NCBI GenBank assembly: GCA_041677125.1
Contig: JBAYQP010000003.1
Coordinates: 45,421-109,420, forward strand
DNA from: Desulfuromonadales bacterium
GTDB taxonomy: Bacteria > Desulfobacterota > Desulfuromonadia > Desulfuromonadales > JACZKF01
DNA length: 64,000 nucleotides
Reading direction: 5' to 3'
Positions 39,012 through 64,000 of the stretch are shown here, in pieces. Each line of letters opens with the position of its first letter. Within the stretch, counting starts at the first letter, position 1. The notes under the pieces are model-generated. The model was not told the DNA's origin, did not search any database, and was given only the letters and a program-made list of their open reading frames with translations. A program made the position numbers and the translations under genes.

Positions 39012-39287
39012 TTACTCCCCCTGCTCCTTCCGGATATAGTCCGCCAGCGTTCTGAGCGACTGCAGCACCTCGCGGCTGGTCTCCTGCGAGGCGATGCGGA
39101 CCTGGAAATTTTTCTGCACCAGCACCACCACTTCCACCGCGTCAAGGGAATCGAGGCCGAAGGGGGAGTCCGGGCCGATGAGCGGGGCGTCGGCGAGAGT
39201 TTCCGTGGGCGGATTGAGCACGTTGCAGGACTGGACGATCATCTTCTGCAGCTGCGCCTCAAGGTCAAGGGTGTTCGTCTTTTCCAT
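39012..39287 (-). CDS. Acyl carrier protein (cluster ACP 3)
   Basis: GLDSLDAVEVVVLVQ phosphopantetheine-attachment motif. 91 aa. AAAGGAGAAG RBS. Confidence 0.8.
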   Translation of the reverse strand: MEKTNTLDLEAQLQKMIVQSCNVLNPPTETLADAPLIGPDSPFGLDSLDAVEVVVLVQKNFQVRIASQETSREVLQSLRTLADYIRKEQGE

Positions 39288-39313
39288 AAACTTCTCCTTT
39301 TATATTCCGTGCC

Positions 39314-40639
39314 TCAGACGCCGCTACGGCTTCGCCGGAGGAAAGCCAGCCAGGCGATCCCCAGGGTGGCGGCGAAAAAGGCGAGCAGTCCGAGGGCGTT
39401 CGGCAGCACGGCGGAAAAATCGCCGCCGCGCACGAACAGTTCGATAAAACCGTTGAGCCCCCAGGCGAGGGGGGAAAACACGCTGATCGCCGCCATCGCT
39501 TTCGGCATGACGTAGACCGGAACCATGACCCCGCCCAGGGCGGCGGCGAGGACCACCGCCACTGGCCCGACCATGGAGGCCTGCTCGTAGGAGCCGACCA
39601 GGGTGCCGACCAGGATGCCGAAGCCCGTCGCCGCCAGGGCGGCGCACAGGGCGAGGAAGAAAACGGCCGCCGGCTGATTGCCGATGTCGAGCACCGGCGT
39701 GCCGAACAGGGGGAGAATGGCGGCGCCCACCAGCAGCATGAAAAGAAACTGGCCGAGGCAAACCAGGACATAGGCCGCCACCTTGCCGGCGAGCAGCAGC
39801 AGCGGCGAAACGGCGATGGTGCGCAGGCGCAGCAAGGTTCCTTCCTGCCGCTCGCGCAGCAGGGTGCCGGAGAGGGGGACGACGATGAAGAACATGCCGA
39901 ACAGAGCCCAGGCCGGCACATTCTGCTGCACCGCCGTCGGCAGGCTGGGCAGTTCGCCGATCAGGGCGACCTGTTCGCGGATGGCGAGAACCGGCGCATC
40001 GCTCCAGGTCAGGCGAAGCTGCGGTTTGGCCGTCTCGGGCATGCCGAAGGGGAACTGGCTGGCGAGTTGCCGCTCCATCTCTCCCGGCAGCAATTCGGCG
40101 ATGAAATGCAGCTTTTCTTCCGTTTCCACGCCGAGGATCACCAGCCGCAGGGAGCTGACCACCGCCGTGCGGAAAGCGCCCTGAACGGTCGGATCGAAGT
40201 AGACCGCCAGTTCGGCGGCCTCTTCGGTCGCCGGCGCGGCATCCTCCGCCCCCGAAAGGGATTGCTCCGCCAGCCGGCGGGCGTGGGCGCGAACCCCTTC
40301 GGTTGTTCCGGCCGGAATGACGATGGCAAATTGAAAATCGCCGCCGCTGACCGCCTGGCGGGCGGCCGCCGCATCGAGGGTCTGATCGGGAATCTCCCGC
40401 ACCAGGGAGAGGGCGCCGAGCTCCCGCAGGCGCTCTTCCACCCGGCGGGCCACCTCGCCGCCGTCTTCATCGACCAGCAGCACCGGCAGGCTGGCGGAGC
40501 TGGTCTCCAGGATGTTGTTCTGCACCAGGGAAACCACCAGCACCAGGGCGGCGGGCATGGCGAAGAGCAGGAGCAGGCCGGCCCGGTCGCGCCAGACGAG
40601 CAGCAGTTCTTTGTAGAGGGTGGCGAGAAGTTTCGACAT
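39314..40639 (-). CDS. ABC-2 type exporter permease with a large extracytoplasmic loop
   Basis: N-terminal TM, ~200-aa loop, then five C-terminal TM segments (ABC-2/YhhJ-like architecture). Confidence 0.8.
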   Translation of the reverse strand: MSKLLATLYKELLLVWRDRAGLLLLFAMPAALVLVVSLVQNNILETSSASLPVLLVDEDGGEVARRVEERLRELGALSLVREIPDQTLDAAAARQAVSGGDFQFAIVIPAGTTEGVRAHARRLAEQSLSGAEDAAPATEEAAELAVYFDPTVQGAFRTAVVSSLRLVILGVETEEKLHFIAELLPGEMERQLASQFPFGMPETAKPQLRLTWSDAPVLAIREQVALIGELPSLPTAVQQNVPAWALFGMFFIVVPLSGTLLRERQEGTLLRLRTIAVSPLLLLAGKVAAYVLVCLGQFLFMLLVGAAILPLFGTPVLDIGNQPAAVFFLALCAALAATGFGILVGTLVGSYEQASMVGPVAVVLAAALGGVMVPVYVMPKAMAAISVFSPLAWGLNGFIELFVRGGDFSAVLPNALGLLAFFAATLGIAWLAFLRRSRSGV

Positions 40640-40651
40640 CGGCGCTTTCGG

Positions 40652-41482
40652 TCAGTGGTCGCGCAGTTGGCGGCCGGTCAAGTGCAGAAACAGGTCTTCG
40701 AGGGAGGCGCATTCGGGCCGGTCGGCGATCAGTGCCGCCGGCTGTCCTTCGGCGATGATCCGGCCGTGGTCCATGATGCCGATGCGATCGCAGAGCTGCT
40801 CCGCCTCTTCCATGTAGTGGGTGGTGTAGACCAGGGTCAATCCCTCATCCTTCAGCCGGGCCAGATTCTCCAGGATCAGGTTGCGCGACTGGGCGTCGAT
40901 GCCCACCGTCGGCTCGTCGAGAAACAGCAGCCGCGGTCGGTGCAGCAGGCCGGCGGCGAGATTGGCGCGCCGCTTCATGCCGCCGGAGTAGACCTCCACC
41001 GGCCGGTCGGCGTGGTCGGCAAGCTGCACCAGGGCGAGAGCCTCGGCGACCCGCTCCTCCAGCGTCAACCCCTTCAGGCCGTAGAGGCGGGCGAAGTAGC
41101 GCAGGTTCTCCCGGCCGGTCAGCCGCGGGTAGAGGGCGATCTCCTGCGGCACCAGGCCGATCTGCCGGCGCACCTGTTTGGCGTGGCACTGGGTGTCGCG
41201 GCCGGCGAAGCGGACGCTGCCGCCAGTGGGCCGCAGCAGAGTGCAGAGGATGGAAATCGCCGTGGTCTTGCCGGCGCCGTTGGGCCCGAGCAGGCCGAAG
41301 GCCTCCCCTTGCCGGATCTGGAGATTGAGCCCGTCCACCGCCGGGCGGGAGGCGCCGGGGTAGATTTTGACCAGATTCCCGGCTTCGAGCAGGATCTCGT
41401 CGCTTGCCGCAACTTCCAGCGGCGACCGCTCGGACAGGTCGCTCTCTTCGGGCATGGTGTCGTTGCGAAGATCGAGCTTCAT
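40652..41482 (-). CDS. ABC transporter ATP-binding protein
   Basis: GPNGAGKTT, YSGGMKRR, LLFLDEPT. ATG at 41482 gives an ATGA overlap with the upstream gene. The track start at 41818 was rejected. Confidence 0.9.
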   Translation of the reverse strand: MKLDLRNDTMPEESDLSERSPLEVAASDEILLEAGNLVKIYPGASRPAVDGLNLQIRQGEAFGLLGPNGAGKTTAISILCTLLRPTGGSVRFAGRDTQCHAKQVRRQIGLVPQEIALYPRLTGRENLRYFARLYGLKGLTLEERVAEALALVQLADHADRPVEVYSGGMKRRANLAAGLLHRPRLLFLDEPTVGIDAQSRNLILENLARLKDEGLTLVYTTHYMEEAEQLCDRIGIMDHGRIIAEGQPAALIADRPECASLEDLFLHLTGRQLRDH

Positions 41483-42480
41483 GGGATCGCCGCCGCCAGA
41501 TCGAGATAGATGCGCCGCTCGCGCGCGGCAATATCGCGCAGCCGGTTGGCGAGGGCGCCGTAGGTGTCGCTCGGCAACCCACGGGTCTTGCAGATGCGGG
41601 CGCCGATGACGGCGAATTCGCGCCAGGCGTCGCCGGCGCCGGTCATCCGCTCCGACAGGGGCTGCAGGGACGGGCGGCCGAGGACTTCGGTCGCTTCCTG
41701 CAAAAAGGCGGCGTAAATAAAACGAAAGCCGCCGCCGCCGGTGCCGATCTCCTCCTGCATGCGGATCATGTGTCCCAGATGCACCGCCGCTTTCTCCTCC
41801 CCGAGTTTGGCCGGCCATTTTTCCAGATGGCGGGCAAGCAGGTGCATGCCGCGAATGCCGGCGTAGGGCACCGGGGTCTTGAGCATCACCCGGCAGACGT
41901 CGGCGATCGCCTTGCTGATCGCGCCCGGCAGGTCCACCTGCTGCGGCGCCCGGCGGATATGGTACAGGCGGCCTTTCGGCGCCAGCGCGCCCTTGGAGAA
42001 ACGGGCGCGCTCGAGGTCTTCGGCCGGACAGCGGACGAGGCCGGGAAAGACCGGATCGCTGATCAGATAGTCGTCCCCTTCGCGGCCGCAGATCACCAGA
42101 TTGTGGCCGTTGAAATGAAAGCGCAGCGCCGGCGGAAAATAGGGGAGCCAGTAGGCGCCGGTTTGCGCGCCGACCGGCGTGCCGGCGGCCAGCAGGCGGT
42201 CGAGGGCCTGCCGGGCGGCAGCGGGACGGCGGAATTTACTCTGCTCGATGTCGATGCCCAGGCGCTTGGTCGCCTTGCGGAAAATGCAGCCGGGCGCGCC
42301 GCGATAGGTGATCAGCGGCAGGTAGTTCATCTTGATGAAGGGGACATAGCCGAAGAACAGCCCCGAGCCGATACCGAAAGCCATTGCCTCGGACATTCCG
42401 ACCCCCGCGTGGGTCAGCAGATTGGCGGTTACGCCGCTTTCGCAATGGGCGGATTGGTTGTGGGGAAAATCGATTTTCAC
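41479..42480 (-). CDS. BtrH_N-like (papain/C39-like) plus DUF4872-like protein
   Basis: FPHNQSAHCESGVTANLL... N-terminus resembles the butirosin BtrH N-terminal domain family (from memory). GTG at 42480 with an AAGGA RBS is preferred over the ATG at 42585. Confidence 0.6.
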   Translation of the reverse strand: MKIDFPHNQSAHCESGVTANLLTHAGVGMSEAMAFGIGSGLFFGYVPFIKMNYLPLITYRGAPGCIFRKATKRLGIDIEQSKFRRPAAARQALDRLLAAGTPVGAQTGAYWLPYFPPALRFHFNGHNLVICGREGDDYLISDPVFPGLVRCPAEDLERARFSKGALAPKGRLYHIRRAPQQVDLPGAISKAIADVCRVMLKTPVPYAGIRGMHLLARHLEKWPAKLGEEKAAVHLGHMIRMQEEIGTGGGGFRFIYAAFLQEATEVLGRPSLQPLSERMTGAGDAWREFAVIGARICKTRGLPSDTYGALANRLRDIAARERRIYLDLAAAIP

Positions 42481-42568: not shown

Positions 42569-43006
42569 TTAAAGTTTTTGCTCACCCAGATGCGGGGTGG
42601 TCAGCTGCGGGCGATCGGGAAGGGCGCCCAGTTCGGCCACGCTCATCTTCAGCAGCGAGGCGTAGCGTTCCAGGAGCGCCGGCTTCAGACGGGCGAAGAT
42701 CGCCGGGCGCAGGTGTCGGCGCACCCGCCAGCGGGAGAGGCCGGTATAGGCGGCGAGCATTCCCACGTCCATCTGGTGGCGGGCCATATGATAGGCCAGG
42801 GGGCTGCGCCGCCCCGCCCGCACCTCGGCGAAGGCGCGCTCGACCTGTTCGCGGATCAGCCCCCAGGCCTGAAGATTGACGATATTCTTCGGTTCCCAAC
42901 CGGCGGTGGGCGCCAGGACATAGTGGCCGTTTTCGTCAAGGGCGTAGCAGATTTCCTGTTGTCCGTCGAGCAGACAGCTGTCTTGGGGCACTTCGGTTTT
43001 GCGCAT
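42569..43006 (-). CDS. Hypothetical protein with a possible C-terminal HTH
   Basis: 145 aa, GAGG RBS. The segment MDVGMLAAYTGLSRWRVRRHLR looks helix-turn-helix-like. No family recognised. Confidence 0.5.
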   Translation of the reverse strand: MRKTEVPQDSCLLDGQQEICYALDENGHYVLAPTAGWEPKNIVNLQAWGLIREQVERAFAEVRAGRRSPLAYHMARHQMDVGMLAAYTGLSRWRVRRHLRPAIFARLKPALLERYASLLKMSVAELGALPDRPQLTTPHLGEQKL

Positions 43007-43099: not shown

Positions 43100-43639
43100 T
43101 CAAAAATAGCGCCCGATCTGCAGCAGCAGCGAATTGCTCCCCCGGTTGTCGCGATGCAGATTGGCGTTCGACAGGTGGTGGATGCGAAAGGCGGCATACC
43201 AGTCGCCGCCGATCTCCGTGCCGATCCCCGCCTGTGGATTGAAGTTGATGCGCAGCCCCTGCCCGGCCACCCGATAATCGGTGTAAATCAGGCCGATCCC
43301 CGCTTCGGCGTAGGGGCGCAGAGCTTCGGTGCGCAGCGAATCGAGATAATAAAGAGCGATCATGTTGCCCGAGGCCATGGCCCGGGACCGTGGCGCCGTG
43401 GTCAAGCCCAGAGTCGCCTCCACTTTGAAGCGCAGCGGCGGCGGCGCGCGGTGCGGCCAGACGCGGTCGTAATCGAACAGCGCCACGCCGGAGACCAGAA
43501 GGAAGTCGATATTTTCCGGGTCGTAGGCGTGGCCGAAGGCCGCCGCCCCGCCGAAGCGCGTGGCCACCTTCTCCTCCCCCCGCGCGGCCGCCGGCAAAGC
43601 GGCAAAAAGCAGCAGCAGGAAGAAAAGAAGGCGCTTCAT
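43100..43639 (-). CDS. PagL-like acyloxyacyl hydrolase (outer-membrane lipid deacylase family)
   Basis: Signal peptide MKRLLFFLLLLFAALPAAA. Beta-barrel-like pattern. HHLSNA motif and C-terminal ...LLLQIGRYF. ATGA overlap with the upstream gene. Confidence 0.6.
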   Translation of the reverse strand: MKRLLFFLLLLFAALPAAARGEEKVATRFGGAAAFGHAYDPENIDFLLVSGVALFDYDRVWPHRAPPPLRFKVEATLGLTTAPRSRAMASGNMIALYYLDSLRTEALRPYAEAGIGLIYTDYRVAGQGLRINFNPQAGIGTEIGGDWYAAFRIHHLSNANLHRDNRGSNSLLLQIGRYF

Positions 43640-44703
43640 CGGCGCGCCACCGTCAGCAGGCCGTAGTCGCCGCAGCGTCCCAGCTTCAGGCAGCCCACCG
43701 GTTCGTCGCCGAAGGATTCCCCGCCGAGCAGTTCGAGGCCGCCGGCCGGGGCGGGCGCGGCGGGGTAGAGCCGATTGTCGCCGGCCGCCAACGCCGCCGC
43801 CGCCAGATCGAAGGCCTGGCCCACGGGCAGGCTGCCCCAGGCGGGCGCGTAGGCGGCCACCCGCGCCCCGGTGGGCAGCAGGCGGGGATAGCCGGCCCCG
43901 CATTCCTTTTGCCCATCGGCGCCGAGAAGCAGGCGTTGCGGCAGCGCCGGCGGGGAGCCGGCCAGATTTCCCTGCCCGATGGCGGTGAGGTAGCCGTAGC
44001 GCCCTGACCGGTCGCCCCTTTCCAGAAGCACAAAGGCGGCGCCTTCGCCGGGAAGAGCGCTCTGCCGGTCAAAGGCGAGGGGCTGCAGCGGCCCATCGGC
44101 AACGCCGAAAAAGCGCCGCCAGCAGTAGCCCAATTCGGGGCAGTATTCGTCGACGCCGCCGACCAGCACGGCATCGACCCGCTCTTCGGCGAGCCAGCGG
44201 CGGGCGGTGAGCAGGGCCGAGGGAAAGCTCATTTCAAACTGGCTGACGGTGAGGCTCGGCCCCGTTACCTGCAGCAGGATCGAAATATTGGCGGCGGCGG
44301 CATTGTGCAGCGAGCTGGAGAAGTGGGTCGGCGACGAGCAGACATCGCCCCCCTGGATAAATGACTGAAGAAAGGCGAAGGTGGTCGCCATCGCGCCCCA
44401 GCCGGTGGCGATCACCACCCCGAGACGGCTGCGGTCGGTCTCCAGTCGGTCGGCGTCCCGCAGGGCCAGCGAGGCGCCGAGCAGGGCGAGCCGGGAAAAG
44501 TGATCGACGCGCCGCAGGGCGCGGCGGGGGACGAAGTCCTCCAGCGCGTCGTCTGCGGCGAGCAGAACCGGCAGCGGCCCCCCCGCGCCGGCCGGCGCCG
44601 GTTGCGGCGTCGGCGGAGCGCCGGCGAGAGCTTGCCGCAGCGCGTCGACGCCGCAGCCGAAGCCGCCCACCACTCCGAGTCCCTGTATCGCCAGCCGGCT
44701 CAT
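43636..44703 (-). CDS. Ketosynthase-like protein lacking the active-site Cys (chain-length-factor-like partner)
   Basis: Thiolase-fold KS similarity, but no ACSSG or NAHGTGT motifs. The expected Cys region reads TVSQFEMS. ATGA overlaps on both sides. Confidence 0.7.
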   Translation of the reverse strand: MSRLAIQGLGVVGGFGCGVDALRQALAGAPPTPQPAPAGAGGPLPVLLAADDALEDFVPRRALRRVDHFSRLALLGASLALRDADRLETDRSRLGVVIATGWGAMATTFAFLQSFIQGGDVCSSPTHFSSSLHNAAAANISILLQVTGPSLTVSQFEMSFPSALLTARRWLAEERVDAVLVGGVDEYCPELGYCWRRFFGVADGPLQPLAFDRQSALPGEGAAFVLLERGDRSGRYGYLTAIGQGNLAGSPPALPQRLLLGADGQKECGAGYPRLLPTGARVAAYAPAWGSLPVGQAFDLAAAALAAGDNRLYPAAPAPAGGLELLGGESFGDEPVGCLKLGRCGDYGLLTVARR

Positions 44704-45881
44704 CGGGCGCCTCCTTTGCGGAAAACGACGACCGCATTGTTGCCGCCGAAGGCGAGGGACTGGGAAAGCGCGAACTCCCCCCGCACCGGCGTGTTGGCGG
44801 TCACTGGCGTCGCCGGACACTGCGGATCGGCCTCGCCGAAGCCGGCGTTGGCCGGCACTTCCCCCCGTTCGAGGGCGGCGACGGTGAAGGCGGCCTCGAT
44901 GGCGCCGGAGGCGCCCAGGGTGTGGCCGGTGTACCCCTTGGTCGACAGGAAGGGGACGCCGGGCAAGGTCACCGCCAGGGTGCGGCTCTCGATCCGGTCG
45001 TTGTCGGGGGTGCCGGTGCCATGGGCGTTGACGAAAGCGAGGTCGGCCGCCGCCGCGCCGCATTGGTCGAGGGCCTCGGCCAGCGCCCGCTTCAATCCCG
45101 CCCCTTCGGGGTGCGGCGCCGTCAGATGGTGGGCGTCGCAGGCCGAACCGTAGCCGGCGACGAAGGCGCGGGGCGGTCGGTCCGCCCGCAGGCCATCCGC
45201 CTCCAGCAGCAGGAAGCCGGCGCCCTCGCCGAGATTGAGCCCCTTGCGCCGCCGGTCGAAGGGGCGCACCGGCGCGTCGTCGGTGATCATCAGGGAGATG
45301 AAGCCGTTGTAGGTGATCCGGCAGAGTTCGTCGGCGCCGCCGGCCAGCACCAGATCGCACTCGCCGGCGCGAATCCAGGCGGCGCCGATGCCGACGGCGT
45401 CGGTGCCGGAGGAGCAGGCGTTCACCACCGTCTGGCAGGGACCGGTCAGGCCGAGATCGCGGGCGACGGCCGTCGCCGGATTGCTGCCGAGAAAACGCTC
45501 GATCTGGGCCAACGGCGGTTCTCCGCCCCGCAGGTAGTCGGCGTAAAAATCTTCGTTGTTCATGGCGCTGCCGACCGTGGTGCCGACGATGACTCCGACC
45601 CGTCGGCCGGCGAGGGCCGCCGGCGACCAGCCGGCATCGGCCACCGCCTCGCGGGCGGCGACGATGGCCAGCCGGGCGGTGCGACCGAGACGCTCGCCGC
45701 CGGGCAGCTCGGCCGCTGCGGCGAAGACCGGGTAGCGCACCGGGTGGTCGCTATGAAAGCGCGCCGGCGGCTGCGGCGCGCGTTCGCCGCGATAAAGGGT
45801 GTCGAGGCAGGCCGCAAGGTTTGTCCCGGCGGCGCAGATGCAGCCGAGGCCGGTCACGGCGACCGGACGGGGAGACCTCAT
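44700..45881 (-). CDS. Beta-ketoacyl-ACP synthase (FabF/FabB-like, condensing)
   Basis: Cys-His-His triad context: VVNACSSG, DAHHLTAP, NAHGTGT, GHTLGASG. ATG at 45881 (ATGA overlap with the ACP gene). Confidence 0.9.
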   Translation of the reverse strand: MRSPRPVAVTGLGCICAAGTNLAACLDTLYRGERAPQPPARFHSDHPVRYPVFAAAAELPGGERLGRTARLAIVAAREAVADAGWSPAALAGRRVGVIVGTTVGSAMNNEDFYADYLRGGEPPLAQIERFLGSNPATAVARDLGLTGPCQTVVNACSSGTDAVGIGAAWIRAGECDLVLAGGADELCRITYNGFISLMITDDAPVRPFDRRRKGLNLGEGAGFLLLEADGLRADRPPRAFVAGYGSACDAHHLTAPHPEGAGLKRALAEALDQCGAAAADLAFVNAHGTGTPDNDRIESRTLAVTLPGVPFLSTKGYTGHTLGASGAIEAAFTVAALERGEVPANAGFGEADPQCPATPVTANTPVRGEFALSQSLAFGGNNAVVVFRKGGAR

Positions 45882-48214: not shown

Positions 48215-48304
48215 AAATGCCTGAAAATTCCATTTTTCGCCACGAATACAGACAAATGAACACAAACAGTCATAAATTCGTCGGTATTCGTGCTAATAAC
48301 GGCC

Positions 48305-55815: not shown

Positions 55816-58172
55816 CGACGCTCCCCGCGATAGAAAGCCGGAATGACCAACAACGCGGCGGGTATGGCGGCGCCGATGCCGAGCAGCACCGTGACGCCGA
55901 TTGAATGCAGCGCCGGATGGCGGGCCAGAATCAGGGCGCCGAAGCCGGCGATGGTCGACAAGCCGGAAACCAGCACCGCCTGGTCGGTGCCGTGGTCGTA
56001 TGCTTCGCCGAATTTGCACACCATGAAAATTCCGTAATCGACTCCCAGGCCGATGATCAGCGCGGTGGCCACGATGTTGAGCAAGGTGAAATTCAAACCG
56101 GTCAGGCCCATGATTCCGAACATGACCGCCAGTCCCGTCGCCACCGGCAGCAGGGCGAGGAGAACCGGCTTCGGCCGGCGGAACAAAAAGCCGACGAAAA
56201 GCGCCACCACCAGGATGGCCAGGGTCAGAAAACGGGAAAAATCGGCGCTGATCGCTTGGCTCAGCTGCCGTCCGAAGCGCCCCTGTGAGATCAGCCGGAC
56301 CGTCGGCAAATCCTGCTGCCGGTCGTCGAAAAAAGCAATGGTCGCCGCTCCGTCCGGCACCAGGGTGAGGACGCGGTAGCCCTCCTGCGTGGGCAGGACC
56401 ATCGCCTCCACCATTTCGCCCAGGCCGGCCTGCCGCAGTCCTGCGGGCGTAATCTTTTCGACGGGCGCCGCGAGGCCATGGAAGAAAGGATCGAAGGCGC
56501 CGGCGGCAAAACCGAGGCGGCCGGCGGCGCTGCGCAACTCGTCCTGGATGCGCAGCCCCTGCTCCCCTTGCCAGAACGCCCGCCAGGCGCGCCGGTGGCG
56601 TTCCTGCACGCCGGCGGGGGGCAGCAGCGGCGCCAGGCTGACCGCCGCCATGGCTGGTTTTTCGCCAAGCGCATCGAACAGCCGAGCGTTGGCGCTCAAG
56701 GCGCTTTCCAGATCCGGCCCCTCGGCAAAGGCCATTGCCATGCCCCGCATCTCTCCCCAGACCGCCTGCACCTCCTGTTCCGCCGCCCGGATTTCGGCCG
56801 GAACCAGGCTCAGGCTGCGCAGGTCGCCATCGATCCGCAGGTGACTGGCCGGCCATAAACTAAGCAGGAGAATCGCCGCCCAGGCGCCGATGATCCATTT
56901 GCGCGGCAAGCGTTCGCCGATGCGCAGCCATGCGGCCGGCGAACGCACGTTGCCGGCCGCCGCCGGGGGAATCAACTGCGGCAGCACGACCAGCGACAAC
57001 AACAGGGCGGCGCCCAGGCCGGAAATGGCGAAGATCGCCAGTTGTCGCTGGCCGGGCAGCTCGGAGGCGAGCAGGACGGCAAAGGCGGCGATGGTGGTGA
57101 AGCCGCCGAAAAGCACCGGGCGGGCCACCTCGGCGATAATCTCGGCCGGCATTCGTCCGCCGTGGCGCAGGGCGAAATAGACGTGGACGGCGTAATCGAC
57201 GGAAATGCCGAGCAGAACCGCGCCGAAACCGAGGGTGACCGCCGACACCGTTCCGTAACCGACGGCGACGGCCAGCGCGGCCAGGCAAAGGACCGAAATC
57301 GGCACCAGAAAGGGAAACAGCGCCCGCCCGTGGCGCAGAAACACCAGAAAGAGAAGGAGCAAGGCGAGCATCGAGGCGGTCAGGGTGAAGCCCAGGTCCC
57401 GCTGGATGGCGCCGGCATTGGCGACGGTGTAGCGATGGCCGCTGACCACCGTGGCGCGCACCTCCGGCGGCAGTTGCGCCAGGGCCGCATCAAGGGCGCG
57501 CAACATCTGCTCGGCCCCTCCCGAGTCGGTGATGGCGACCGGGGTGTCGGCGATGAGCAGGGCGTGCCGGCCGTCGGCGCTGACGAACCGGCCGCTGTCG
57601 AGTTGCGCCTGCGGCACCAGATTCAGATGCTGCAGCTTGGCCATGCCGAGACGGTTCAGGCCCAGCGGATCGCGCCGCAGGGCGTCCTTGAGCACCCAGC
57701 CCTCCGGCGACAGCAACCGGTCGCGCACCTGGTGCAGGCGATTCTCGATTTCCGCCGCGTCCAGGCCGGCGGCCAAAGACTCCAGTTCCGCTGCGTCGAC
57801 CAGGTTGGGCAGGGCGGCGGTCAGCCAGGCGATGATATTTCCCTGCGCCATATCGGCCGGCCCGGCGACCACCCGGTCGAACCAGGGGGGGCCGAGGGCG
57901 CCCCGCAGCCGGTCGACCGCCGTGGCCAGCAACGCGGCATCGGCGTCCGGCGCCAGCGCAAGGGAGAGCAGAACCTTGCGGGCGAAGGGCGCCTGCTCCA
58001 GCAGGGCGAAATCGCTGCGCACGGGACCGTCCGGCAACATCGCGGCGATGTTCTCCTCCAGGCGTATTTCGCGAAAGGCGAGAACGCTCAGGAGAACCAC
58101 CGCTGCTGTCAGGACGAAAAGGCTCCGGCGGCGCGGGGCCAAAAATCGGTGAATATGGGCAAAAAGCTGCAA
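55812..58172 (-). CDS. MMPL/RND-superfamily lipid exporter
   Basis: 786 aa. Two 6-TM bundles each preceded by a large periplasmic loop. The start is a TTG in the track; exact start uncertain. Confidence 0.85.
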   Translation of the reverse strand: MQLFAHIHRFLAPRRRSLFVLTAAVVLLSVLAFREIRLEENIAAMLPDGPVRSDFALLEQAPFARKVLLSLALAPDADAALLATAVDRLRGALGPPWFDRVVAGPADMAQGNIIAWLTAALPNLVDAAELESLAAGLDAAEIENRLHQVRDRLLSPEGWVLKDALRRDPLGLNRLGMAKLQHLNLVPQAQLDSGRFVSADGRHALLIADTPVAITDSGGAEQMLRALDAALAQLPPEVRATVVSGHRYTVANAGAIQRDLGFTLTASMLALLLLFLVFLRHGRALFPFLVPISVLCLAALAVAVGYGTVSAVTLGFGAVLLGISVDYAVHVYFALRHGGRMPAEIIAEVARPVLFGGFTTIAAFAVLLASELPGQRQLAIFAISGLGAALLLSLVVLPQLIPPAAAGNVRSPAAWLRIGERLPRKWIIGAWAAILLLSLWPASHLRIDGDLRSLSLVPAEIRAAEQEVQAVWGEMRGMAMAFAEGPDLESALSANARLFDALGEKPAMAAVSLAPLLPPAGVQERHRRAWRAFWQGEQGLRIQDELRSAAGRLGFAAGAFDPFFHGLAAPVEKITPAGLRQAGLGEMVEAMVLPTQEGYRVLTLVPDGAATIAFFDDRQQDLPTVRLISQGRFGRQLSQAISADFSRFLTLAILVVALFVGFLFRRPKPVLLALLPVATGLAVMFGIMGLTGLNFTLLNIVATALIIGLGVDYGIFMVCKFGEAYDHGTDQAVLVSGLSTIAGFGALILARHPALHSIGVTVLLGIGAAIPAALLVIPAFYRGERR

Positions 58173-58186: not shown

Positions 58187-58804
58187 TCAGAACGCGTCGG
58201 CCGGCAGGGGAGCGTTGACGCGCGCCGCGGAAAACCGGATGCGGGTGAAATCGCCGTCGATCTCGTGAACTTCCACCGATTGCACATGCCGTCCGTCGCC
58301 GGCGAAGGCGACGCGCAGATGATCGAGAAAGCCGCCGGCGGCGGCCAGCGGCTCCAGGCGCAGCACCGCCGGCTGTTCGCTGACAATCGCGATGCGAAAT
58401 TGCTGCCGCAGTCGGCTGAAGTCGCCGCCGGCCCAGGCGAGAAGCTGCTCGGCCACCAGCTTCATCACCGGTTCGCGGTCCAGATTGAAATCCTCGCTCT
58501 GGCCGGTGCGGGCATGCCAGCGCCGACCCTGGTCACCATCGAGGACGAAGCCGGTGGCCACCGGTTCGGTCAATTCCCAGCGCAGACGATTCGGCCTTTG
58601 GAAATAAAAACGTCCCTTCGAGGTGAGAACCTCCTGGAAAACGGCCAGGTGTTTCTCCTGTACGAAGTCGCTGGCCAGAGTGGCGACGTCGGCTGTCTGC
58701 CGGCGCAGGCGCTCAAGGACCGCTTCCGGGTTCGGTTCGGCCGCCGCGGCGGCAACCGTGCCGGTGGTGAGCAGCAAAAACAGTACGACAACGATTCGGC
58801 GCAT
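58187..58804 (-). CDS. LolA-like outer-membrane lipoprotein carrier protein
   Basis: Signal peptide, then F.Q......L....S.G.FYFQRPNRLRWE, a LolA family pattern. Confidence 0.7.
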   Translation of the reverse strand: MRRIVVVLFLLLTTGTVAAAAAEPNPEAVLERLRRQTADVATLASDFVQEKHLAVFQEVLTSKGRFYFQRPNRLRWELTEPVATGFVLDGDQGRRWHARTGQSEDFNLDREPVMKLVAEQLLAWAGGDFSRLRQQFRIAIVSEQPAVLRLEPLAAAGGFLDHLRVAFAGDGRHVQSVEVHEIDGDFTRIRFSAARVNAPLPADAF

Positions 58805-59292
58805 CAGTCGGTCGCCTCGCTTTCATCGGCAATCCAGAGCTTGAGGGCGCCCCTGGCAATCGATCGCTCTTTGCGCCAGATCTCCCCCTCGGCCATGGCG
58901 AATCCGCCCAGATTTGCCACCGTGCGCAATTCGATCCGCAGCCGATCGCCCACATGCGCCGTCCCGGTGAAAGCGAAGGAACTGACGCCGACCAGAAAAC
59001 CTTTTCTGACCGGCCGCCCCCGGCGCTGGTCTTCATAGCCCTGCAAGGCGGCAAAGGACTGCGCCAGCATCTCGATGAGTCCGGCCGCCTCCAGGCGACC
59101 TTCGGCGTCGGTCAACGGGCCGTCGCCGCGCACCGTCGCGGCGACGGTGGCGCCGCCCCCGGCGCAGGCGCACAGCTCATCGACGAGCCGCATCGGCAGA
59201 CGGTGCGGGATCAGTTCTTCGGCCGGCCGGGGAAGGGGGAGATCAATCATCGCGGCGCAGCTTTCCTCATCGCCAATAAATCGACAGGTCAT
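58804..59292 (-). CDS. Hotdog-fold dehydratase (FabZ-like, second dehydratase subunit)
   Basis: LIPHRLPMRLVDEL and GLIEMLAQS motifs, typical of APE-cluster dehydratases. Start at 59292 or 59250. Confidence 0.6.
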   Translation of the reverse strand: MTCRFIGDEESCAAMIDLPLPRPAEELIPHRLPMRLVDELCACAGGGATVAATVRGDGPLTDAEGRLEAAGLIEMLAQSFAALQGYEDQRRGRPVRKGFLVGVSSFAFTGTAHVGDRLRIELRTVANLGGFAMAEGEIWRKERSIARGALKLWIADESEATD

Positions 59293-60853
59293 CGAAAATC
59301 TGGCTGGAAAAAAGGATCCGGCGCAATTTCACCAGGTCGTCATGGAAGACCCGGTCGTTGTTGTACACGGTAAATTCCCGGCTGAGAATTTCGTAAATGC
59401 GTCCCGTTCCGCGGCCGAGGCCGGCCGCGTTGCGGAAGGACAGGGCCTGCAGATCGGCCAGGATTTCCATGGTGACGACATGTTTGGCGTTGCTGACCGA
59501 CTTGAACGCCTTGCGCGCGGCGACTGTTCCCATGCTGACCACATCCTGGTTGGAGGCGTTGCAGGAAATGGAATTCGTGCTCACCGGGCCGGCCAACTGC
59601 CGGTTTTCCGCCGTGGTCGAGGTGGCCAGATACTGCGCACCCATAAAGCCCATGGTCAGCCCGGGGGTGCCGGGGATGAGAAACTCGGGGAGGCCCTCGT
59701 TCAACTTCCGGTCAAGGTATTTGTTCAGCCGCCGCTCGGAAATGTTGCAGAGAGTGGCGACGGCGATGCACAGGGCGTCCATGCTGAAGCTGATGCTCTG
59801 GCCGTGAAAATTGCCGCCATGGATGATCTTTTTTTGCTCCGGAATAATGATCGGATTGTCGTTGGTGCTGTTCGCTTCGGTTTCCACCGTACGCACCGCC
59901 ATGGCGATCGCCTCGGCCACCGGCGCCAGCACCTGCGGCGTGCAGCGCACCGAGTAGACGTCCTGCACGTTGATGCTCGTCTCGTAGACCGGGCCGTCCT
60001 GCTGCTGCTTGCGGATCAACTCGTGCATGTCGGCGCGGCGGGTGATGTTGCGCGACCCCTCATAGAGCCGGCGAATCGTATCGGCAATCTCGATTTGCCC
60101 GGCGTGCGGCTTCACCCGGTGCAGGTCCTCGTCGAAGGCATCGTCGATGCCGCCGAAAATCTCCAGGGAAAAGGCGCCGCTGACGCAGGACAGGCGCAGC
60201 AGCTTACGGGCGCCGAAGAGGGCGAAGGCGGCCAGGGCGGTCATGGCGCTGGTGCCGTTCATCAGTGCGATACCCTCCTTGTAGGAGAGGCGCATCGGGG
60301 TGATGCCCATTTCGGCGAAAACGTCGGCGGTGGGCCGCAGCTGTTCGCGATAATACACCTGCCCCTCGCCGATGATCGCCAGCGACATGTGGGCGAGATG
60401 GATCAGATCGCCGGAGGCGCCGACGCTGCCGCATTCGGGAATGAAAGGGGCAATGCCCCGGTTGATCATCTCCCGCATGAATTCCAACAACTCGGTGCGC
60501 ACACCGCTGTAGCCTTTGACCAGCGTGTTCAGACGCACCACCAAAACGGCCAGGGCGATGTACGGCTTGAGCGGGTCGCCGAGACCGGCAGCGTGGCTGC
60601 GAATCAGGTTGATCTGCAAGGTTTCGGTTTCGTTGTCGCCGATAATTTTATTGCACATCGGGCCGAAGGAGGTATTGACGCCGTAGATGATGCGGCGGGC
60701 GGCAACTTCCTCCTCAAGAAACCGGCGACTGGCGCGACAGCGCTCCAGGGCGGCCGGGTCGAGCGCCACCTGCCGGTCGCCGACGCCGATGGCGACGATC
60801 TCCTCGATGGTCAGATCGTTGCCGTTGAGAATGACAGTAGCTTTATCAGCCAT
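59267..60853 (-). CDS. MIO-dependent aromatic amino acid/histidine ammonia-lyase (HAL/PAL/TAL family)
   Basis: GSVGASGDLIHLAHM (the Ala-Ser-Gly MIO precursor), YGVNTSFG, NLIRSHAAGLG. 528 aa. Confidence 0.9.
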   Translation of the reverse strand: MADKATVILNGNDLTIEEIVAIGVGDRQVALDPAALERCRASRRFLEEEVAARRIIYGVNTSFGPMCNKIIGDNETETLQINLIRSHAAGLGDPLKPYIALAVLVVRLNTLVKGYSGVRTELLEFMREMINRGIAPFIPECGSVGASGDLIHLAHMSLAIIGEGQVYYREQLRPTADVFAEMGITPMRLSYKEGIALMNGTSAMTALAAFALFGARKLLRLSCVSGAFSLEIFGGIDDAFDEDLHRVKPHAGQIEIADTIRRLYEGSRNITRRADMHELIRKQQQDGPVYETSINVQDVYSVRCTPQVLAPVAEAIAMAVRTVETEANSTNDNPIIIPEQKKIIHGGNFHGQSISFSMDALCIAVATLCNISERRLNKYLDRKLNEGLPEFLIPGTPGLTMGFMGAQYLATSTTAENRQLAGPVSTNSISCNASNQDVVSMGTVAARKAFKSVSNAKHVVTMEILADLQALSFRNAAGLGRGTGRIYEILSREFTVYNNDRVFHDDLVKLRRILFSSQIFDDLSIYWR

Positions 60854-60970: not shown

Positions 60971-62281
60971 CTATGGTCGGGTTTTGCGGTGATCGAAAAA
61001 AACCACCGCTTTGCGTTTGCCTTCCGGCATGGTGCGCGCGGTTACCGTTTCGGCGGCGGCCATCACGACTTCGGGAGTCACCCGCAGCCGTGCGGTCAGT
61101 CGTTCGCCGATCGCCTCGGCGCTCAGGGAATTGTCGCGGCAGGCAACGGTCACCCGCAGGCGGTCGGAAAGATGATATTCGTCGAAAACCTCCAGGTAGT
61201 AGCCACAAATCGACTCGAATTCCTGCAGCACGGCGAAGACGGCCGGCGGGTAAACGGTGGTGCCGCGAATCTTGAGCATCTGCGCCTTGCGGCCGAGGAC
61301 CGGTCCGAGGCGCGGCCAAAGAAGTCCACAGGGGCAGGGCTCGGCATGGAGGACGGCGATGTCGCCGGTGCGAAAGCGCAGAAGCGGCATGCCGGTCACC
61401 TGCAGCGGGGTGACCACCACCTCGCCCGGCGCTCCGGGCGGCAGCGGCGATCCCGCCTCGTCGACGATCTCGACCGCCGCCAGAGCCGGATGCAGATGCC
61501 CTCCCCGGCCGCTTTCGCAATCGGAAAAAGCGGTGGCCATTTCGGTGCTGGCGTAGGTGCCGAACAGGGGGGCCCGCCAGCGCTCCACCAGCCGCTGCCC
61601 CAATGGCGAAAGATTCAGCTCGCGGCTGCGAACCGGTTCGCCGATACCGACCAGACGGCGCACTCCGGTCGCCGCCGGATCGATCCCTTCGGCCTGCAGC
61701 CGCTCGGCCAGGGCGAGCAGCAGCGTCGGGACGCCGATGATGGCCGTCGGTTTTTGCTGGCGCACCAGCTCCGCCAGCAGGGCGAGATTGCTGGCGCCGG
61801 CGCGGATGGCGGTGGCGCCGAGGTGCGCCAGACCCAGAAAATAGGCAAGGCCGGCCATGAAGCAGCGGTCGAGGGCGACGGCGATCAGCACCCGGTCGTC
61901 GGGGCCAATGCCCATGCGGCGAAAAGATGACGCTTCATTGGCGGTGAGGCGGTCCAGATCGCGCCGGGTCTGCAAAAGCGGAACCGGCGCGTCGGTCGTC
62001 CCCGAGGTCAGGCAGACATCGACAATCGCCGCCGGCTCGACACAGAGGAACTCGCGATGGGCCGCCCCCAGATCCCCTTTGTCGGTGAAGGGGAGGCGGT
62101 GCAGGTCGCTGCAGCCGGCAATCTGCCGCAGGTCAATGCCGTTTTCGGCAAAGCGCCGCCGATAAAAAGGGGAATGATCGGCCAGATAGCGCAGATGATC
62201 GAGCAGCAGAGCATCCTGATGCGCCTGCAGCGTGGCAAGCGGCGCCATTTCGAATTCGGGATTGTCGACGGCGGAAAACAT
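60971..62281 (-). CDS. PaaK/F390-synthetase-like adenylate-forming acyl-CoA (or acyl-ACP) ligase
   Basis: LLDHLRYLADHSPFYRRRF, LPFTDKGDL, TSGTTDAPV, and the C-terminal domain are typical of the phenylacetate-CoA ligase family. Confidence 0.8.
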   Translation of the reverse strand: MFSAVDNPEFEMAPLATLQAHQDALLLDHLRYLADHSPFYRRRFAENGIDLRQIAGCSDLHRLPFTDKGDLGAAHREFLCVEPAAIVDVCLTSGTTDAPVPLLQTRRDLDRLTANEASSFRRMGIGPDDRVLIAVALDRCFMAGLAYFLGLAHLGATAIRAGASNLALLAELVRQQKPTAIIGVPTLLLALAERLQAEGIDPAATGVRRLVGIGEPVRSRELNLSPLGQRLVERWRAPLFGTYASTEMATAFSDCESGRGGHLHPALAAVEIVDEAGSPLPPGAPGEVVVTPLQVTGMPLLRFRTGDIAVLHAEPCPCGLLWPRLGPVLGRKAQMLKIRGTTVYPPAVFAVLQEFESICGYYLEVFDEYHLSDRLRVTVACRDNSLSAEAIGERLTARLRVTPEVVMAAAETVTARTMPEGKRKAVVFFDHRKTRP

Positions 62282-63081
62282 TATTCGCCTCGATCCGCGC
62301 GCATTTTCTGCAAATTCTCCATCATGTCCGCCTTAACCTTTCGCCGCAGATCGCCATGGCTTTCGAAGGAAGTCGAATCCACCGGCGGCAGCGCCCGTAA
62401 CCGCACCTGGGTCGGCCGCAGCCAGCGCCGGCCGGGCGGCAGGAGCCGATCGGTGCCGGTGATACAGAGGGGGTAGACGGGGCAGCCGAGTTGGCGTGCC
62501 AGGCAGAAGGCCCCCGAATAGAAGCGCTGCATCTGGCCGTCCCGGCTGCGGTGCCCTTCGGGAAAAAAAAGGAGATGTCCGCCCTGGGTGATGATGCGCC
62601 GGCCGGCCGCCAGGGTTTCGTCCACATTCATCCGCTCGACATCGAGGTACTCGGCCATGCGCATGAAGGCGGCATAGCCGGGTATGCGAAAAGGCCAGGA
62701 ACGCACGGCAAAGGTGATGTCGAAGACCGGCAGCAGCGCCATGCAATAGGTGTCGAAAAACGACAGGTGATTAATGACGAAAATGCCCGGCGTGTGAAAC
62801 TGTTCGGCAGACAAATTCTCCCGCCGAAATCGAACGAAGGGGGAGACGATCAGCATCCAGCCCCGGCCGTAAATCCAGATCAGACTCCGGACGATGCGCC
62901 CCGCCGGCCAGCCGGCGCCAACCTTTGCCAGCAGCAGATAAAGGGGCGAGAGGGCGATCCCGACCACGGTCCACAACACCAGCAGCGGGTAGACCGCCAG
63001 CGTCATCAGCAGCGCCGCTGGGCCGGGGCGCTCCAGAATCACCGGGTTTGTTTCGTTGACTGCCATCTGCCGGATGCCCAC
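62281..63081 (-). CDS. PlsC-family 1-acyl-sn-glycerol-3-phosphate acyltransferase-like protein
   Basis: NHLSFFD (HX4D), FPEGHRS, N-terminal TM. Start is the GTG at 63081 or the ATG at 63066. Confidence 0.8.
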   Translation of the reverse strand: MGIRQMAVNETNPVILERPGPAALLMTLAVYPLLVLWTVVGIALSPLYLLLAKVGAGWPAGRIVRSLIWIYGRGWMLIVSPFVRFRRENLSAEQFHTPGIFVINHLSFFDTYCMALLPVFDITFAVRSWPFRIPGYAAFMRMAEYLDVERMNVDETLAAGRRIITQGGHLLFFPEGHRSRDGQMQRFYSGAFCLARQLGCPVYPLCITGTDRLLPPGRRWLRPTQVRLRALPPVDSTSFESHGDLRRKVKADMMENLQKMRADRGE

Positions 63082-63345
63082 TTAGGCAGTTTTGGCCAGA
63101 GTTGACTGTTTGCCGATGACGAATCGGTGGATGTCGCCGAGGGTGCGGATCTGGCGAATCGCCTCTTCTTCGCGAATCTTGAAGCCGAAGGCGCCTTCGA
63201 GAACGATGACCAGATCGACGATATCCAGACTGTCCAGACCAAGATCGTCAAAGAGTGTCGCGTCGGCGGTCATCGCCAGTGGCTGCAATTCGAATTCCTC
63301 GGCCAGGGCGGTATTGATCCGCTCGATGATTTGTTGTTCCGTCAT
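63082..63345 (-). CDS. Acyl carrier protein (cluster ACP 1)
   Basis: LGLDSLDIVDLVIVLE motif. 87 aa. ATGA overlap with the upstream KS. Confidence 0.85.
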   Translation of the reverse strand: MTEQQIIERINTALAEEFELQPLAMTADATLFDDLGLDSLDIVDLVIVLEGAFGFKIREEEAIRQIRTLGDIHRFVIGKQSTLAKTA

Positions 63346-64000
63346 GCAAGACTCCTTAAAACGATCGATGAATTGACCCCCCCCAGGGCAAAATTGTTTT
63401 TGATGATGGCGCGCGGCGCCGCCGATTCCACCTTGCGGATATGGCGCAGGGGAGCGCAGGCGGGATCCGGATTATCCAGATTGAGCGTGGGGATGAGACA
63501 GCCGCGCCGGAGCATTTCCACTGCCGCCACCAGTTCAAGGGAGCCGCTGGCGGCCATGGCGTGGCCCAGGTGCCCCTTGAGGCTGCTGACCGGCACCTCG
63601 CCACCGAAGAGGCGGAAAATAGCGCCCCCTTCGGCGATATCTCCCTGCTCGGTGGCGGTGGCGTGCGCGTTTACGTAATCGATTTCTTCCTTGTTCATCC
63701 GGCTGTCGGCGAGGGCCAGGCGCATGCACTGCTCGATGGCGGCGGAGTTCGGATTGGCGATGCTGGCCGGATCGGTCAGGGTGGCAAAACCGGCGACCTC
63801 GCCGAGTATCGTCGCTTTGCGCGCTTGCGCCGAAGCGAGGGATTCGAGGAGCAGAATGCCGCAACCCTCGCCGCAGACGACGCCGTCGCGGCCGCGGTCG
63901 AAGGGACGGGGGGTCTGCCGGGGCTGCTCATTCCACCTGCAGGAGGCGGCGTTCATGATGTCGAAAGTGCCAGCCGTCAGCGGATGAAACTCGTCGGCGC
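63342..64000 (-). CDS. Beta-ketoacyl-ACP synthase, C-terminal part (gene continues beyond the window)
   Basis: PFDRGRDG, NAHATAT, KGHLGHAMAASG, NNFALGGVNSSIVL. The reading frame is open to the window edge. Confidence 0.85.
   Translation of the reverse strand, partial: ADEFHPLTAGTFDIMNAASCRWNEQPRQTPRPFDRGRDGVVCGEGCGILLLESLASAQARKATILGEVAGFATLTDPASIANPNSAAIEQCMRLALADSRMNKEEIDYVNAHATATEQGDIAEGGAIFRLFGGEVPVSSLKGHLGHAMAASGSLELVAAVEMLRRGCLIPTLNLDNPDPACAPLRHIRKVESAAPRAIIKNNFALGGVNSSIVLRSLA

Follow-up and report, generated by a model that had tools for sequence, protein, structure and literature searches.

A B12-radical SAM-containing operon in a Desulfuromonadales bacterium, a likely member of an anaerobe-associated family of aryl-polyene/flexirubin-type lipid clusters

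Operon structure and gene content

Here, we describe a long minus-strand gene cluster in a 64,000-nucleotide stretch of DNA (hereafter the window; positions 45,421 to 109,420 of contig JBAYQP010000003.1, assembly GCA_041677125.1) from a metagenome-assembled genome (MAG) of a Desulfuromonadales bacterium. An original prediction, made from the sequence alone, had read positions 39012 to 64000 as an aryl-polyene (APE)/flexirubin-like type II polyketide synthase (PKS) lipid cluster of 27 co-directional genes with frequent stop-start overlaps, cut by the window edge. Gene calls scored by a codon-usage model, for which the long open reading frames (ORFs) of the window served as training set, bear this layout out: from 39012 to the edge the DNA resolves into one non-overlapping tiling of 27 genes, all on the minus strand, which we number from G01 at the 3' end to the edge-cut G27 at the 5' end (Table 1). 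Seventeen of the 26 junctions overlap, 11 of them by the four bases ATGA, 2 by a single base (TGATG, TAATG), and 4 by more, the total becoming 16 if the shorter DarH start at 42480 is used, and the widest intergenic gap is 117 nt. The 3' boundary of the operon is clear, as an intrinsic-terminator-like hairpin follows G01 and the genes beyond it (tRNA-Arg, two tRNA-Ser, and serS) lie on the opposite strand.

The 5' part could be read from public metagenome data. An identical copy of the acyl carrier protein (ACP) G26 is present on two public contigs, L001 and L002, and every gene that L001 shares with the window is 100% identical in translation. The full-length G27 occupies 5572-6801 of L001 and encodes 409 aa. 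Upstream of it lie genes for a 490-aa flavin adenine dinucleotide (FAD) protein that weakly resembles CrtD/CrtI, a 406-aa FabB-like ketosynthase (KS; G29), and a 241-aa short-chain dehydrogenase/reductase (SDR) that scored 302 bits against FabG (cut-off 273) and 317 bits against FlxB (cut-off 340). Beyond these come a gap of 390 nt and then unrelated genes. Extending the locus past 64000, a check that the original prediction had proposed, thus found a ketoreductase (KR) and the 5' cluster boundary. That neither a KR nor a methyltransferase is seen is true for the window, but the KR lies four genes past the edge, and its absence from the window is therefore an edge artifact; no domain of an S-adenosylmethionine (SAM)-dependent methyltransferase was found by Pfam or NCBIfam in any of the 31 operon genes. 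Judged from gene arrangement, the locus is a single predicted operon of 31 genes, 27 of which fall inside the window. Scans for sigma-70 and sigma-54 promoters upstream of the KR gave no signal above chance, and an RNA scan returned tRNAs and RNase P RNA only, with no cobalamin riboswitch or other RNA element.

Table 1. Features of the window. Positions are those of the 64,000-nucleotide stretch; bit scores are given with family cut-offs where available.
Feature	Position	Strand	Evidence
G01, ACP of Dar-like module	39012-39287	-	PP-binding 24.4 bits; GLDSLD
G02, ABC-2 permease	39314-40639	-	ABC2_membrane_3 E = 4e-34
G03, ABC ATPase, DrrA-like	40652-41482	-	ABC_tran E = 1e-33; drrA subfamily 281 bits (cut-off 312, below)
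G04, DarH, BtrH-related ACP-dependent acyltransferase	41479-42480	-	NF053550 DarH_acyl 463 bits (cut-off 300); BtrH_N, DUF4872
G05, DarG-family protein, no Pfam match	42569-43006	-	NF053536 DarG_fam 153 bits (cut-off 70)
G06, PagL-like outer-membrane deacylase	43100-43639	-	PagL E = 5e-18; signal peptide
G07, chain-length-factor-like KS partner, 355 aa	43636-44703	-	KS N-terminal domain match only
G08, KS	44700-45857	-	Cys-His-His triad intact
G09, ACP	45878-46132	-	PP-binding E = 3e-9; PRK09184 74 bits (cut-off 70)
G10, LpxL-like acyltransferase	46129-47073	-	Lip_A_acyltrans E = 8e-10
G11, GT2 + DUF2062 glycosyltransferase	47060-48265	-	Glycos_transf_2 E = 2e-19; DUF2062 E = 7e-14
G12, B12-binding radical SAM, BchE/HpnJ-like	48305-49750	-	B12-binding + Radical_SAM domains
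G13, B12-binding radical SAM	49747-51114	-	TIGR04072 672 bits (cut-off 360)
G14, divergent B12-binding radical SAM	51111-52373	-	B12-binding 33.6 bits (cut-off 32.1); CKFDCFPC motif
G15, short chain-length-factor-like KS partner, 237 aa, ApeC-sized	52464-53177	-	KS N-terminal domain only
G16, KS	53174-54307	-	KS N- + C-terminal domains; Cys-His-His intact
G17, 4HBT thioesterase, ApeK-like	54304-54765	-	4HBT_2 E = 2e-17
G18, ApeI-like dehydratase	54759-55148	-	ApeI-like 24 bits (cut-off 28.5, below)
G19, DUF3261/LolB-like lipoprotein, ApeN-like	55141-55815	-	DUF3261 19.8 bits (cut-off 22.3, below)
G20, MMPL/RND exporter, ApeM-like	55812-58172	-	MMPL E = 1e-13; HAE3 + HpnN-type matches
G21, LolA-like periplasmic carrier, ApeL-like	58187-58804	-	LolA E = 2e-20; signal peptide
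G22, ApeP-like dehydratase	58804-59292 (likely start 59250)	-	ApeP-like 22.4 bits (cut-off 27, below)
G23, MIO aromatic amino-acid ammonia-lyase, FlxA-like	59267-60853	-	Lyase_aromatic 564 bits, Pfam E = 3e-169
G24, FlxY/PaaK-type aryl-acid ligase	60971-62281	-	AMP-binding + AMP-binding_C_2
G25, PlsC-type acyltransferase, ApeD-like	62281-63081	-	Acyltransferase E = 1e-17; NHLSFFD (HX4D), FPEG motifs
G26, ACP	63082-63345	-	PP-binding E = 7e-11
G27, KS, edge-cut	63342-64000	-	Ketoacyl-synt_C E = 8e-27; 218 3' codons of 409
Intrinsic-terminator-like hairpin	38943-38976	-	15-bp stem, 10 G-C pairs, T-rich tail, 36 nt past G01 stop
tRNA-Ser(TGA), tRNA-Ser(GCT), tRNA-Arg(ACG) array	38518-38934	+	Directly after serS, abuts cluster terminator
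Multi-PAS hybrid histidine kinase	28004-30424	-	Signaling genes 22795-30424
HAMP-PAS-GGDEF-EAL protein	23694-26207	-	Beside oxidase locus
Periplasmic phosphonate-binding-like protein	22795-23697	-	Beside oxidase locus
CcoN	20758-22176	-	cbb3-type cytochrome c oxidase locus (15239-22176)
Fused CcoO/cytochrome c	19867-20742	-	cbb3 locus
CcoG/FixG-like protein	17889-19130	-	cbb3 locus
Heavy-metal P-type ATPase	15239-17713	-	cbb3 locus
DsbD_2 protein	14378-15025		Near cbb3 locus
RNase P RNA, class A	13931-14317	+	295 bits
tRNA	11794-11866	+	

Polyketide core and aryl starter genes

Domains were assigned by Pfam and NCBIfam profile searches, with bit scores compared with the family cut-offs, and every domain named in the original prediction was recovered. 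For comparison across genomes, the TIGR04072 alignment (the family of G13) was scanned against one genome per GTDB species, which placed a TIGR04072 protein in at least 542 species genomes; all 31 operon proteins were then compared by tblastn with the best 80 of these loci, to which the locus counts given below refer.

In an alignment of six KS-like proteins, the Cys-His-His triad is kept in G08, G16, G27 (full-length on L001), and G29, and G07 and G15 carry Glu at the position of the active-site Cys and lack both His residues. G15 is close in size to the short PDB chain 6qsp_B (239 aa), from an entry that we take to be Xenorhabdus ApeO:ApeC. The top PDB matches of the dehydratases are 3esi and 6qsr_A for G18 and 6qsr_B for G22, 6QSR presumably being the Xenorhabdus ApeI:ApeP complex, and PF22818 (G18) and PF22817 (G22) are listed for the identical genes on the public contig, where G22 is called as a 148-aa product. 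The GLDSLD serine motif is present in all three ACPs in the window, and the start codon of G09 (ATG at 46132) shares an ATGA overlap with the stop of G10. An attempt to sub-type the KS proteins through PDB matches was uninformative, as FabF, amxFabF2, ishigamide, and ApeO entries scored alike; G08, for example, had Thermus thermophilus FabF and Brocadia amxFabF2 (9s5h_B) as its top matches.

Grammbitter et al., who describe the APE-lipid structure and the roles of the genes, define ape clusters by core genes for a KS, a chain-length factor (CLF), ACPs, a dehydratase pair, a KR, and a transporter (bioRxiv 10.1101/2020.12.19.423268). All of these are found in the operon, as Cys-His-His KS proteins, inactive KS partners, ACPs, an ApeI/ApeP-type pair, the KR, and an MMPL/LolA/DUF3261 set, and together with a flexirubin-like ammonia-lyase and ligase, presumably for initiation, they uphold the reading as an APE/flexirubin-type type II PKS lipid cluster.

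The ammonia-lyase G23 carries the 4-methylideneimidazole-5-one (MIO)-forming ASG at residues 146-148, together with S-H at motif 1 (the "selectivity switch") and N-Q-D at motif 2. The same mixture of a histidine ammonia-lyase (HAL)-like motif 1 and a tyrosine ammonia-lyase (TAL)-like motif 2 has been reported for FlxA, a proven TAL (PMC3992019), and both motifs are essentially invariant among 11-14 aligned homologs of G23. The best PDB match is a tyrosine aminomutase. By its motifs, G23 is probably a TAL. Two HAL models rank first among NCBIfam matches and FlxA third (487 bits, cut-off 700), and we judge HAL activity less likely, since Gln replaces the HAL Glu at motif 2 (PMC3992019) and the gene sits within the operon. 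The neighboring ligase G24 scored 445 bits against FlxY_rubin, under the cut-off of 520.

Acyl transfer and export genes

The genes G19, G20, and G21 form an adjacent export set (DUF3261, MMPL, LolA-like). G19 has a lipoprotein-type N-terminus (...LLLAGGC), and its place after the MMPL gene is kept in 19 loci; G21 reached 101 bits against LolA2_flexi, short of the 125 cut-off. The canonical LpxL/PlsC motif is H-x4-D/E. G10 instead has H-x4-Q (HVGCWQ), and this Gln is invariant in 65 of 65 homologs. The PagL-like G06, whose H-x-S-N motif (HLSN) is kept across 12 homologs, has no counterpart in characterized APE/flexirubin clusters, and so lies beyond the APE parts list just as first proposed.

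B12-binding radical SAM genes

The same holds for the three B12-radical SAM genes, which are absent from characterized APE and flexirubin clusters. All three proteins, G12-G14, carry CxxxCxxC. G12 scored 180 bits against BchE and 170 bits against HpnJ, reaching neither cut-off. The family of G13, TIGR04072, has the short name rSAM_ladder_B12, and a G13-identical protein is named by NCBI "lipid biosynthesis B12-binding/radical SAM protein"; G13 also shows similarity to BzaD/TsrM-type enzymes (NCBIfam). G14 belongs to no curated family, its Radical_SAM score being 24.7 against a cut-off of 29.5 and no NCBIfam model being reached. Among 1.84 billion 50%-identity representatives, two full-length ones match it at 50% identity or more, and across 63 loci from about ten phyla nearly all copies share 61-87% identity with it.

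Median identity across loci is 78% for the lyase G23, 69% for G14, and 69% for G12, and 33-59% for the other genes found at multiple loci. G12 is present in 11 of the 11 loci that carry the lyase, and most loci with the ligase and no lyase lack G12, suggesting that G12 may be tied to the tyrosine-derived head group. G13, the TIGR04072 protein, is followed by ACP, KS, and CLF in 37-57 of the 80 loci. Given the top-ranking identity of G12 and G14 and the presence of G12 with every lyase, these comparisons point to the radical SAM genes as conserved core parts of the family and not sporadic decorations.

A Dar-like module

The five genes at the 3' end, G05-G01, had been described as a BtrH_N-like/ABC-2/ACP subcluster beyond the APE/flexirubin list. 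This part of the original prediction does not stand: the block is a known accessory module of dialkylresorcinol/flexirubin clusters, as G04 and G05 reach the DarH and DarG_fam cut-offs and the gene order is identical to that of Azoarcus. In the dar (arcuflavin) cluster of Azoarcus sp. BH72, the published order is a conserved hypothetical gene, a BtrH-like gene, an ABC ATPase, an ABC permease, and an ACP (PMC3949708), which equals G05-G04-G03-G02-G01 and puts G01 at the darC position. The G04 ORF is open to 42585, and its likely form of 333 aa matches an identical 333-aa database protein (P0121). G05 scored 137 bits against flexirubin_DarG, short of the 170 cut-off; by eye, its C-terminal half is helix-turn-helix-like.

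No DarA, DarB, or FabH-like protein was found by Pfam in 43 of about 54 scored window ORFs, all large ones included, and a DarB query from Desulfuromonas soudanensis had no tblastn match in the window; for a Dar-type module, this lack is the unusual feature. The D. soudanensis WTL genome (locus L083, 13681-16150, CP010802.1), whose homologous cluster lies around 1.36-1.38 Mb, itself encodes a ketosynthase of the StlD/DarB family (578 bits, cut-off 450). This KS gene and an HpnR-like B12-radical SAM gene lie at the end of that cluster in convergent orientation, with no DarA seen. This pair suggests a cyclohexanedione/resorcinol branch in D. soudanensis with the radical SAM protein in the place of the aromatase.

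Distribution and earlier descriptions of the cluster

The core of the cluster recurs in about ten phyla of anaerobes, and a colinear version is found in dozens of species. The full G23-to-G01 order is kept in Geobacter sp. UBA9964, G23-to-G02 in Pelovirga and Desulfuromusa, and, over the part of the locus covered, G15-to-G01 in cultured D. soudanensis, with near-complete copies in other Desulfuromonadales and in Desulfobacteraceae; the gene order was confirmed by separate gene calling for D. soudanensis WTL and for one 5-Mb genome. A core set of dehydratases, LolA, MMPL, DUF3261, thioesterase, KS:CLF, G14 and G13, GT2, LpxL-like protein, ACP, and a further KS:CLF is carried by Lentisphaerota, Verrucomicrobiota, Nitrospirota, Omnitrophota, Cloacimonadota, Calditrichota, and Desulfobulbales. 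Desulfovibrionales, which have no G12, G14-G16, lyase, or ligase, and Acidobacteriota, which retain radical SAM, ACP, KS, and CLF alone, carry reduced versions. The PagL and Dar genes are missing from most phyla among the loci compared. Several Desulfovibrio and Maridesulfovibrio isolates also hold a homologous cluster.

These results also correct the original prediction. The decorated version cannot be tied to a single Geobacter-like organism, since many Desulfuromonadales, a cultured isolate among them, have the same gene set and order and about ten phyla have the core, and the cluster type had been described before. Rattray et al. (2009; PMC2649909) described type II fatty acid synthase (FASII)-like clusters of Desulfotalea psychrophila, Geobacter species, and Pelobacter carbinolicus as syntenic with the anammox "ladderane" loci of Kuenenia, the common parts being radical SAM, phytoene-dehydrogenase-like, "phenylacetyl-CoA ligase," glycosyltransferase, and MMPL-like membrane proteins. 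There is moreover a curated NCBIfam model, and antiSMASH applies the label "ladderane" to such clusters in Desulfobacterota, Verrucomicrobiota, Omnitrophota, and other phyla (bioRxiv 10.1101/2022.12.20.521206). Literature searches on Geobacter/Desulfovibrio APE clusters and on TIGR04072 found no paper that names the product or studies these Geobacter genes.

Proposed pathway and alternatives

Taken together, we consider it likely that the locus belongs to a conserved sub-family of type II PKS lipid clusters of the aryl-polyene/flexirubin type that carries B12-radical SAM genes and is associated with anaerobes. Domain assignments from the searches, put in order by analogy with the APE-lipid pathways of Xenorhabdus and Escherichia coli and the flexirubin pathway of Chitinophaga, outline a possible route. 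G23 would convert tyrosine to 4-coumarate, which G24 would activate and load for ACP G26. The FabB/F-like KS proteins G27 and G29 would start the chain and the KS:CLF pair G16:G15 would extend it with malonyl units, each extension cycle involving the KR past the window edge and the ApeI/ApeP-like dehydratases G18/G22. Because the operon has no enoyl reductase, a conjugated polyene is the expected product. The second KS:CLF pair, G08:G07, may build another chain on ACP G09, a parallel to the conjugated C26:5 fatty acyl chain found in APE lipids, and G12-G14 and the CrtD-like flavoprotein might tailor the chains, the least certain step. Thioesterase G17, PlsC-like G25, GT2-DUF2062 protein G11, and LpxL-like G10 would transfer the chains to a glyco- or phospholipid anchor; MMPL protein G20, LolA-like G21, and LolB-like lipoprotein G19 would carry the product to the outer membrane, where PagL-like G06 may trim an acyl group. 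The Dar-like genes G05-G01 could handle a third ACP-bound acyl unit, with DarH transferring it from ACP G01 and ABC-2 export following.

Several points weigh against this interpretation. The FlxA, FlxY, FlxB, LolA2, and DarG scores all fall short of the flexirubin equivalog cut-offs, and the resemblance to the characterized Xenorhabdus Ape proteins is remote: the dehydratase PDB E-values are just 4e-3 and 4e-4, and the ApeI/ApeP Pfam scores are below the gathering cut-off. The substrate specificity of G23 is read from just two motifs. Many relatives are without the lyase, and Desulfovibrionales are also without the ligase within 10 kb, which argues that an aromatic starter is not universal across the family. 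A Dar module without DarA and DarB has no established role, the chemistry of the radical SAM proteins is not readable from sequence, and no member of the sub-family has an observed product.

Our best guess for the radical SAM step, held with low confidence, is C-methylation or another C-H functionalization of the aryl head or polyene, C-methylation being named first because the operon has no SAM methyltransferase and G13 resembles BzaD/TsrM. It is conceivable, although we stop short of calling it likely, that G12-G14, and above all the G14 family, carry out an undescribed reaction (C-methylation, cyclization, or cross-linking) on an ACP-bound (aryl-)polyene, giving an anaerobe-specific class of outer-membrane lipid distinct from APE lipids and flexirubins. 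If so, this would be a further case of radical SAM chemistry on fatty-acid/polyketide-type lipids, beyond jawsamycin and the proposed ladderane pathways, in a reaction amenable to study in cultivable Desulfuromonas/Geobacter, and it might inform the unsolved ladderane pathway. An undescribed lipid as the product of the operon is plausible.

An unlikely alternative is that the locus belongs to the anaerobic polyunsaturated fatty acid/hydrocarbon pathway proposed by Rattray et al., in which KS, ACP, a CrtI-like flavoprotein, and radical SAM enzymes would desaturate ordinary fatty acyl-ACPs without oxygen and so give a polyunsaturated fatty acid or hydrocarbon in place of an aryl polyene. Similar clusters are present in D. 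psychrophila, Geobacter, and Pelobacter, and polyunsaturated hydrocarbons have been reported in D. psychrophila (PMC2649909), but that link is a correlation only. A CrtD/CrtI-like FAD protein is indeed part of the operon; its KS:CLF, ApeI/ApeP-type dehydratases, and missing enoyl reductase, however, would already yield conjugated polyenes with no desaturase, and heterologous tests of the CrtI homologs of anammox bacteria established no function for them (PMC4790861). The lyase is absent from many relatives and the ligase from some, whereas here an FlxA-type lyase and FlxY-type ligase are translationally embedded, and no gene of the family is better conserved than the lyase.

Less probable again is a mosaic of neighboring modules (APE-like, radical SAM lipid, lipid A remodeling by the LpxL-like and PagL-like proteins, and Dar-type export) with separate products. 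The modules vary independently among taxa, as seen in Desulfovibrionales, Acidobacteriota, and the many phyla without PagL/Dar, and the widest gaps (88-117 nt) fall at or beside module borders. Set against this are the single strand, the overlapping junctions, and the one terminator, as well as the long colinear stretches kept from Geobacter UBA9964 to D. soudanensis. The GT2 and LpxL-like genes, moreover, correspond to one fused gene in E. coli, that of ApeJ (PMC8253772).

The relation to anammox loci was examined through Brocadia amxFabF2, whose sequence was rebuilt from a PDB alignment and used to scan metagenomes. This recovered a Cluster I contig of Brocadia type, with 92% identity to amxFabF2, that carries FabZ, FabF2, FabFmut, and a phytoene-dehydrogenase-like (PDH) gene and to which the operon KS and flavoprotein have best identities of 26-35%. 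A second, more distant contig has 57% identity to amxFabF2, and its radical SAM protein shares 25% identity with G14. Chains labeled beta-hydroxyacyl-ACP dehydratase, which we take to be amxFabZ, match the operon dehydratase at E = 0.15-0.37. Membership in anammox Cluster I (KustE3603-3608) was rejected, as identities to these contigs are 25-35% and the dehydratases are not amxFabZ-like, and at this level of identity the relation is one of distant homology, not orthology. A ladderane-type pathway, in which radical SAM enzymes would form concatenated cyclobutanes from the polyene, as has been suggested for anammox bacteria, is thus highly improbable in spite of the TIGR04072 match of G13, the antiSMASH label, and the reported synteny with anammox loci (PMC2649909), all the more so as ladderanes were not found in D. 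psychrophila (PMC2649909), these lipids being known from anammox Planctomycetota only, and as the dehydratases here are ApeI/ApeP-like.

For the window itself, the outcome is mainly a correct annotation and not a discovery, as the cluster family is already known and widespread. The wider interest lies in the family that we favor as its home, which spans at least several hundred species of anaerobic Gram-negatives in about ten phyla and has radical SAM genes among its most conserved parts. According to a 2026 review, modification by radical SAM enzymes has been proposed for only two acyl-type lipids, ladderanes and jawsamycin (PMC13459092), and the family would add a widespread case. As cultured D. 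soudanensis and several isolates of Desulfovibrio and Maridesulfovibrio carry the operon, its product is within reach of genetics and lipidomics.

Genomic neighborhood

Outside the operon, the window encodes a cbb3-type oxidase locus, signaling genes, and RNA genes (Table 1). From the oxidase locus, the Desulfuromonadales MAG can probably respire low oxygen. The host described in the original prediction as a Geobacter-like anaerobe is indeed an anaerobic member of the Desulfuromonadales, but it is not a strict avoider of oxygen, since a cbb3 oxidase is encoded in the window. Given likely low-oxygen respiration, the operon lipid may have an antioxidant role. Upstream of the operon, positions 1-1718 of L001 hold a Roadblock/LC7 protein and an Arf-family small GTPase (an MglB/MglA-like pair), as well as a 220-aa protein with no family match.

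Comparison with known systems

By profile score, the operon comes closest to the flexirubin models, with FlxY, FlxB, LolA2_flexi, and DarH as its top NCBIfam models. Like the flexirubin clusters of Chitinophaga pinensis (flx/dar) and Flavobacterium johnsoniae, it appears to initiate with a lyase carrying FlxA-type motifs and an aryl-acid ligase (PMC3992019), and it shares with them a FabG-like KR, several KS, dehydratases, thioesterase, acyltransferase, glycosyltransferase, LolA, exporter, DarH, and the DarG family. It differs in that DarH and the DarG family alone reach their cut-offs, in having neither DarA/DarB (and so no evident dialkylresorcinol partner) nor a SAM methyltransferase, and in adding three B12-radical SAM genes, a CrtD-like flavoprotein, and PagL; the flexirubin hosts, too, are aerobic Bacteroidota, in contrast to an anaerobic member of the Desulfuromonadales here. 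The Azoarcus sp. BH72 dar cluster likewise has darA and darB adjoining the genes that match the Dar-like module, whereas there are none in the window.

With the clusters of Rattray et al., the operon shares the same combination of genes, including neighboring radical SAM genes and extra FabF paralogs with mutated active sites (PMC2649909). Geobacter is named there as a carrier, and the Desulfobulbales loci of our scan show a matching order; the relationship to APE/flexirubin clusters, the lyase, and the Dar module were not recognized in that work (PMC2649909).

Finally, 15 of the 18 ape functions of E. coli have counterparts in the operon when it is compared with the ape clusters of E. coli CFT073 and Xenorhabdus doucetiae (PMC8253772), namely, ApeC, D, E, F, H, I, J, K, L, M, N, O, P, Q, and R. 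ApeA, ApeB, and ApeG are absent here; no domain like that of ApeB (a SAM-dependent methyltransferase) or ApeG (a COG4648 membrane protein) was found in the 31 genes, and both lie outside the ape core definition. The operon has 13 additional genes and only remote sequence similarity to the ape clusters, and the starter, which in ape clusters is supplied as 4-hydroxybenzoate through the acyl-ACP synthetase ApeH, would here come from the lyase and the FlxY-type ligase. The fused ApeJ of E. coli corresponds to two genes, G11 and G10 (PMC8253772), and the L-M-N order is shared. As in APE lipids, two chains are expected here, an aryl polyene and a conjugated fatty acyl (bioRxiv 10.1101/2020.12.19.423268; PMC8253772).

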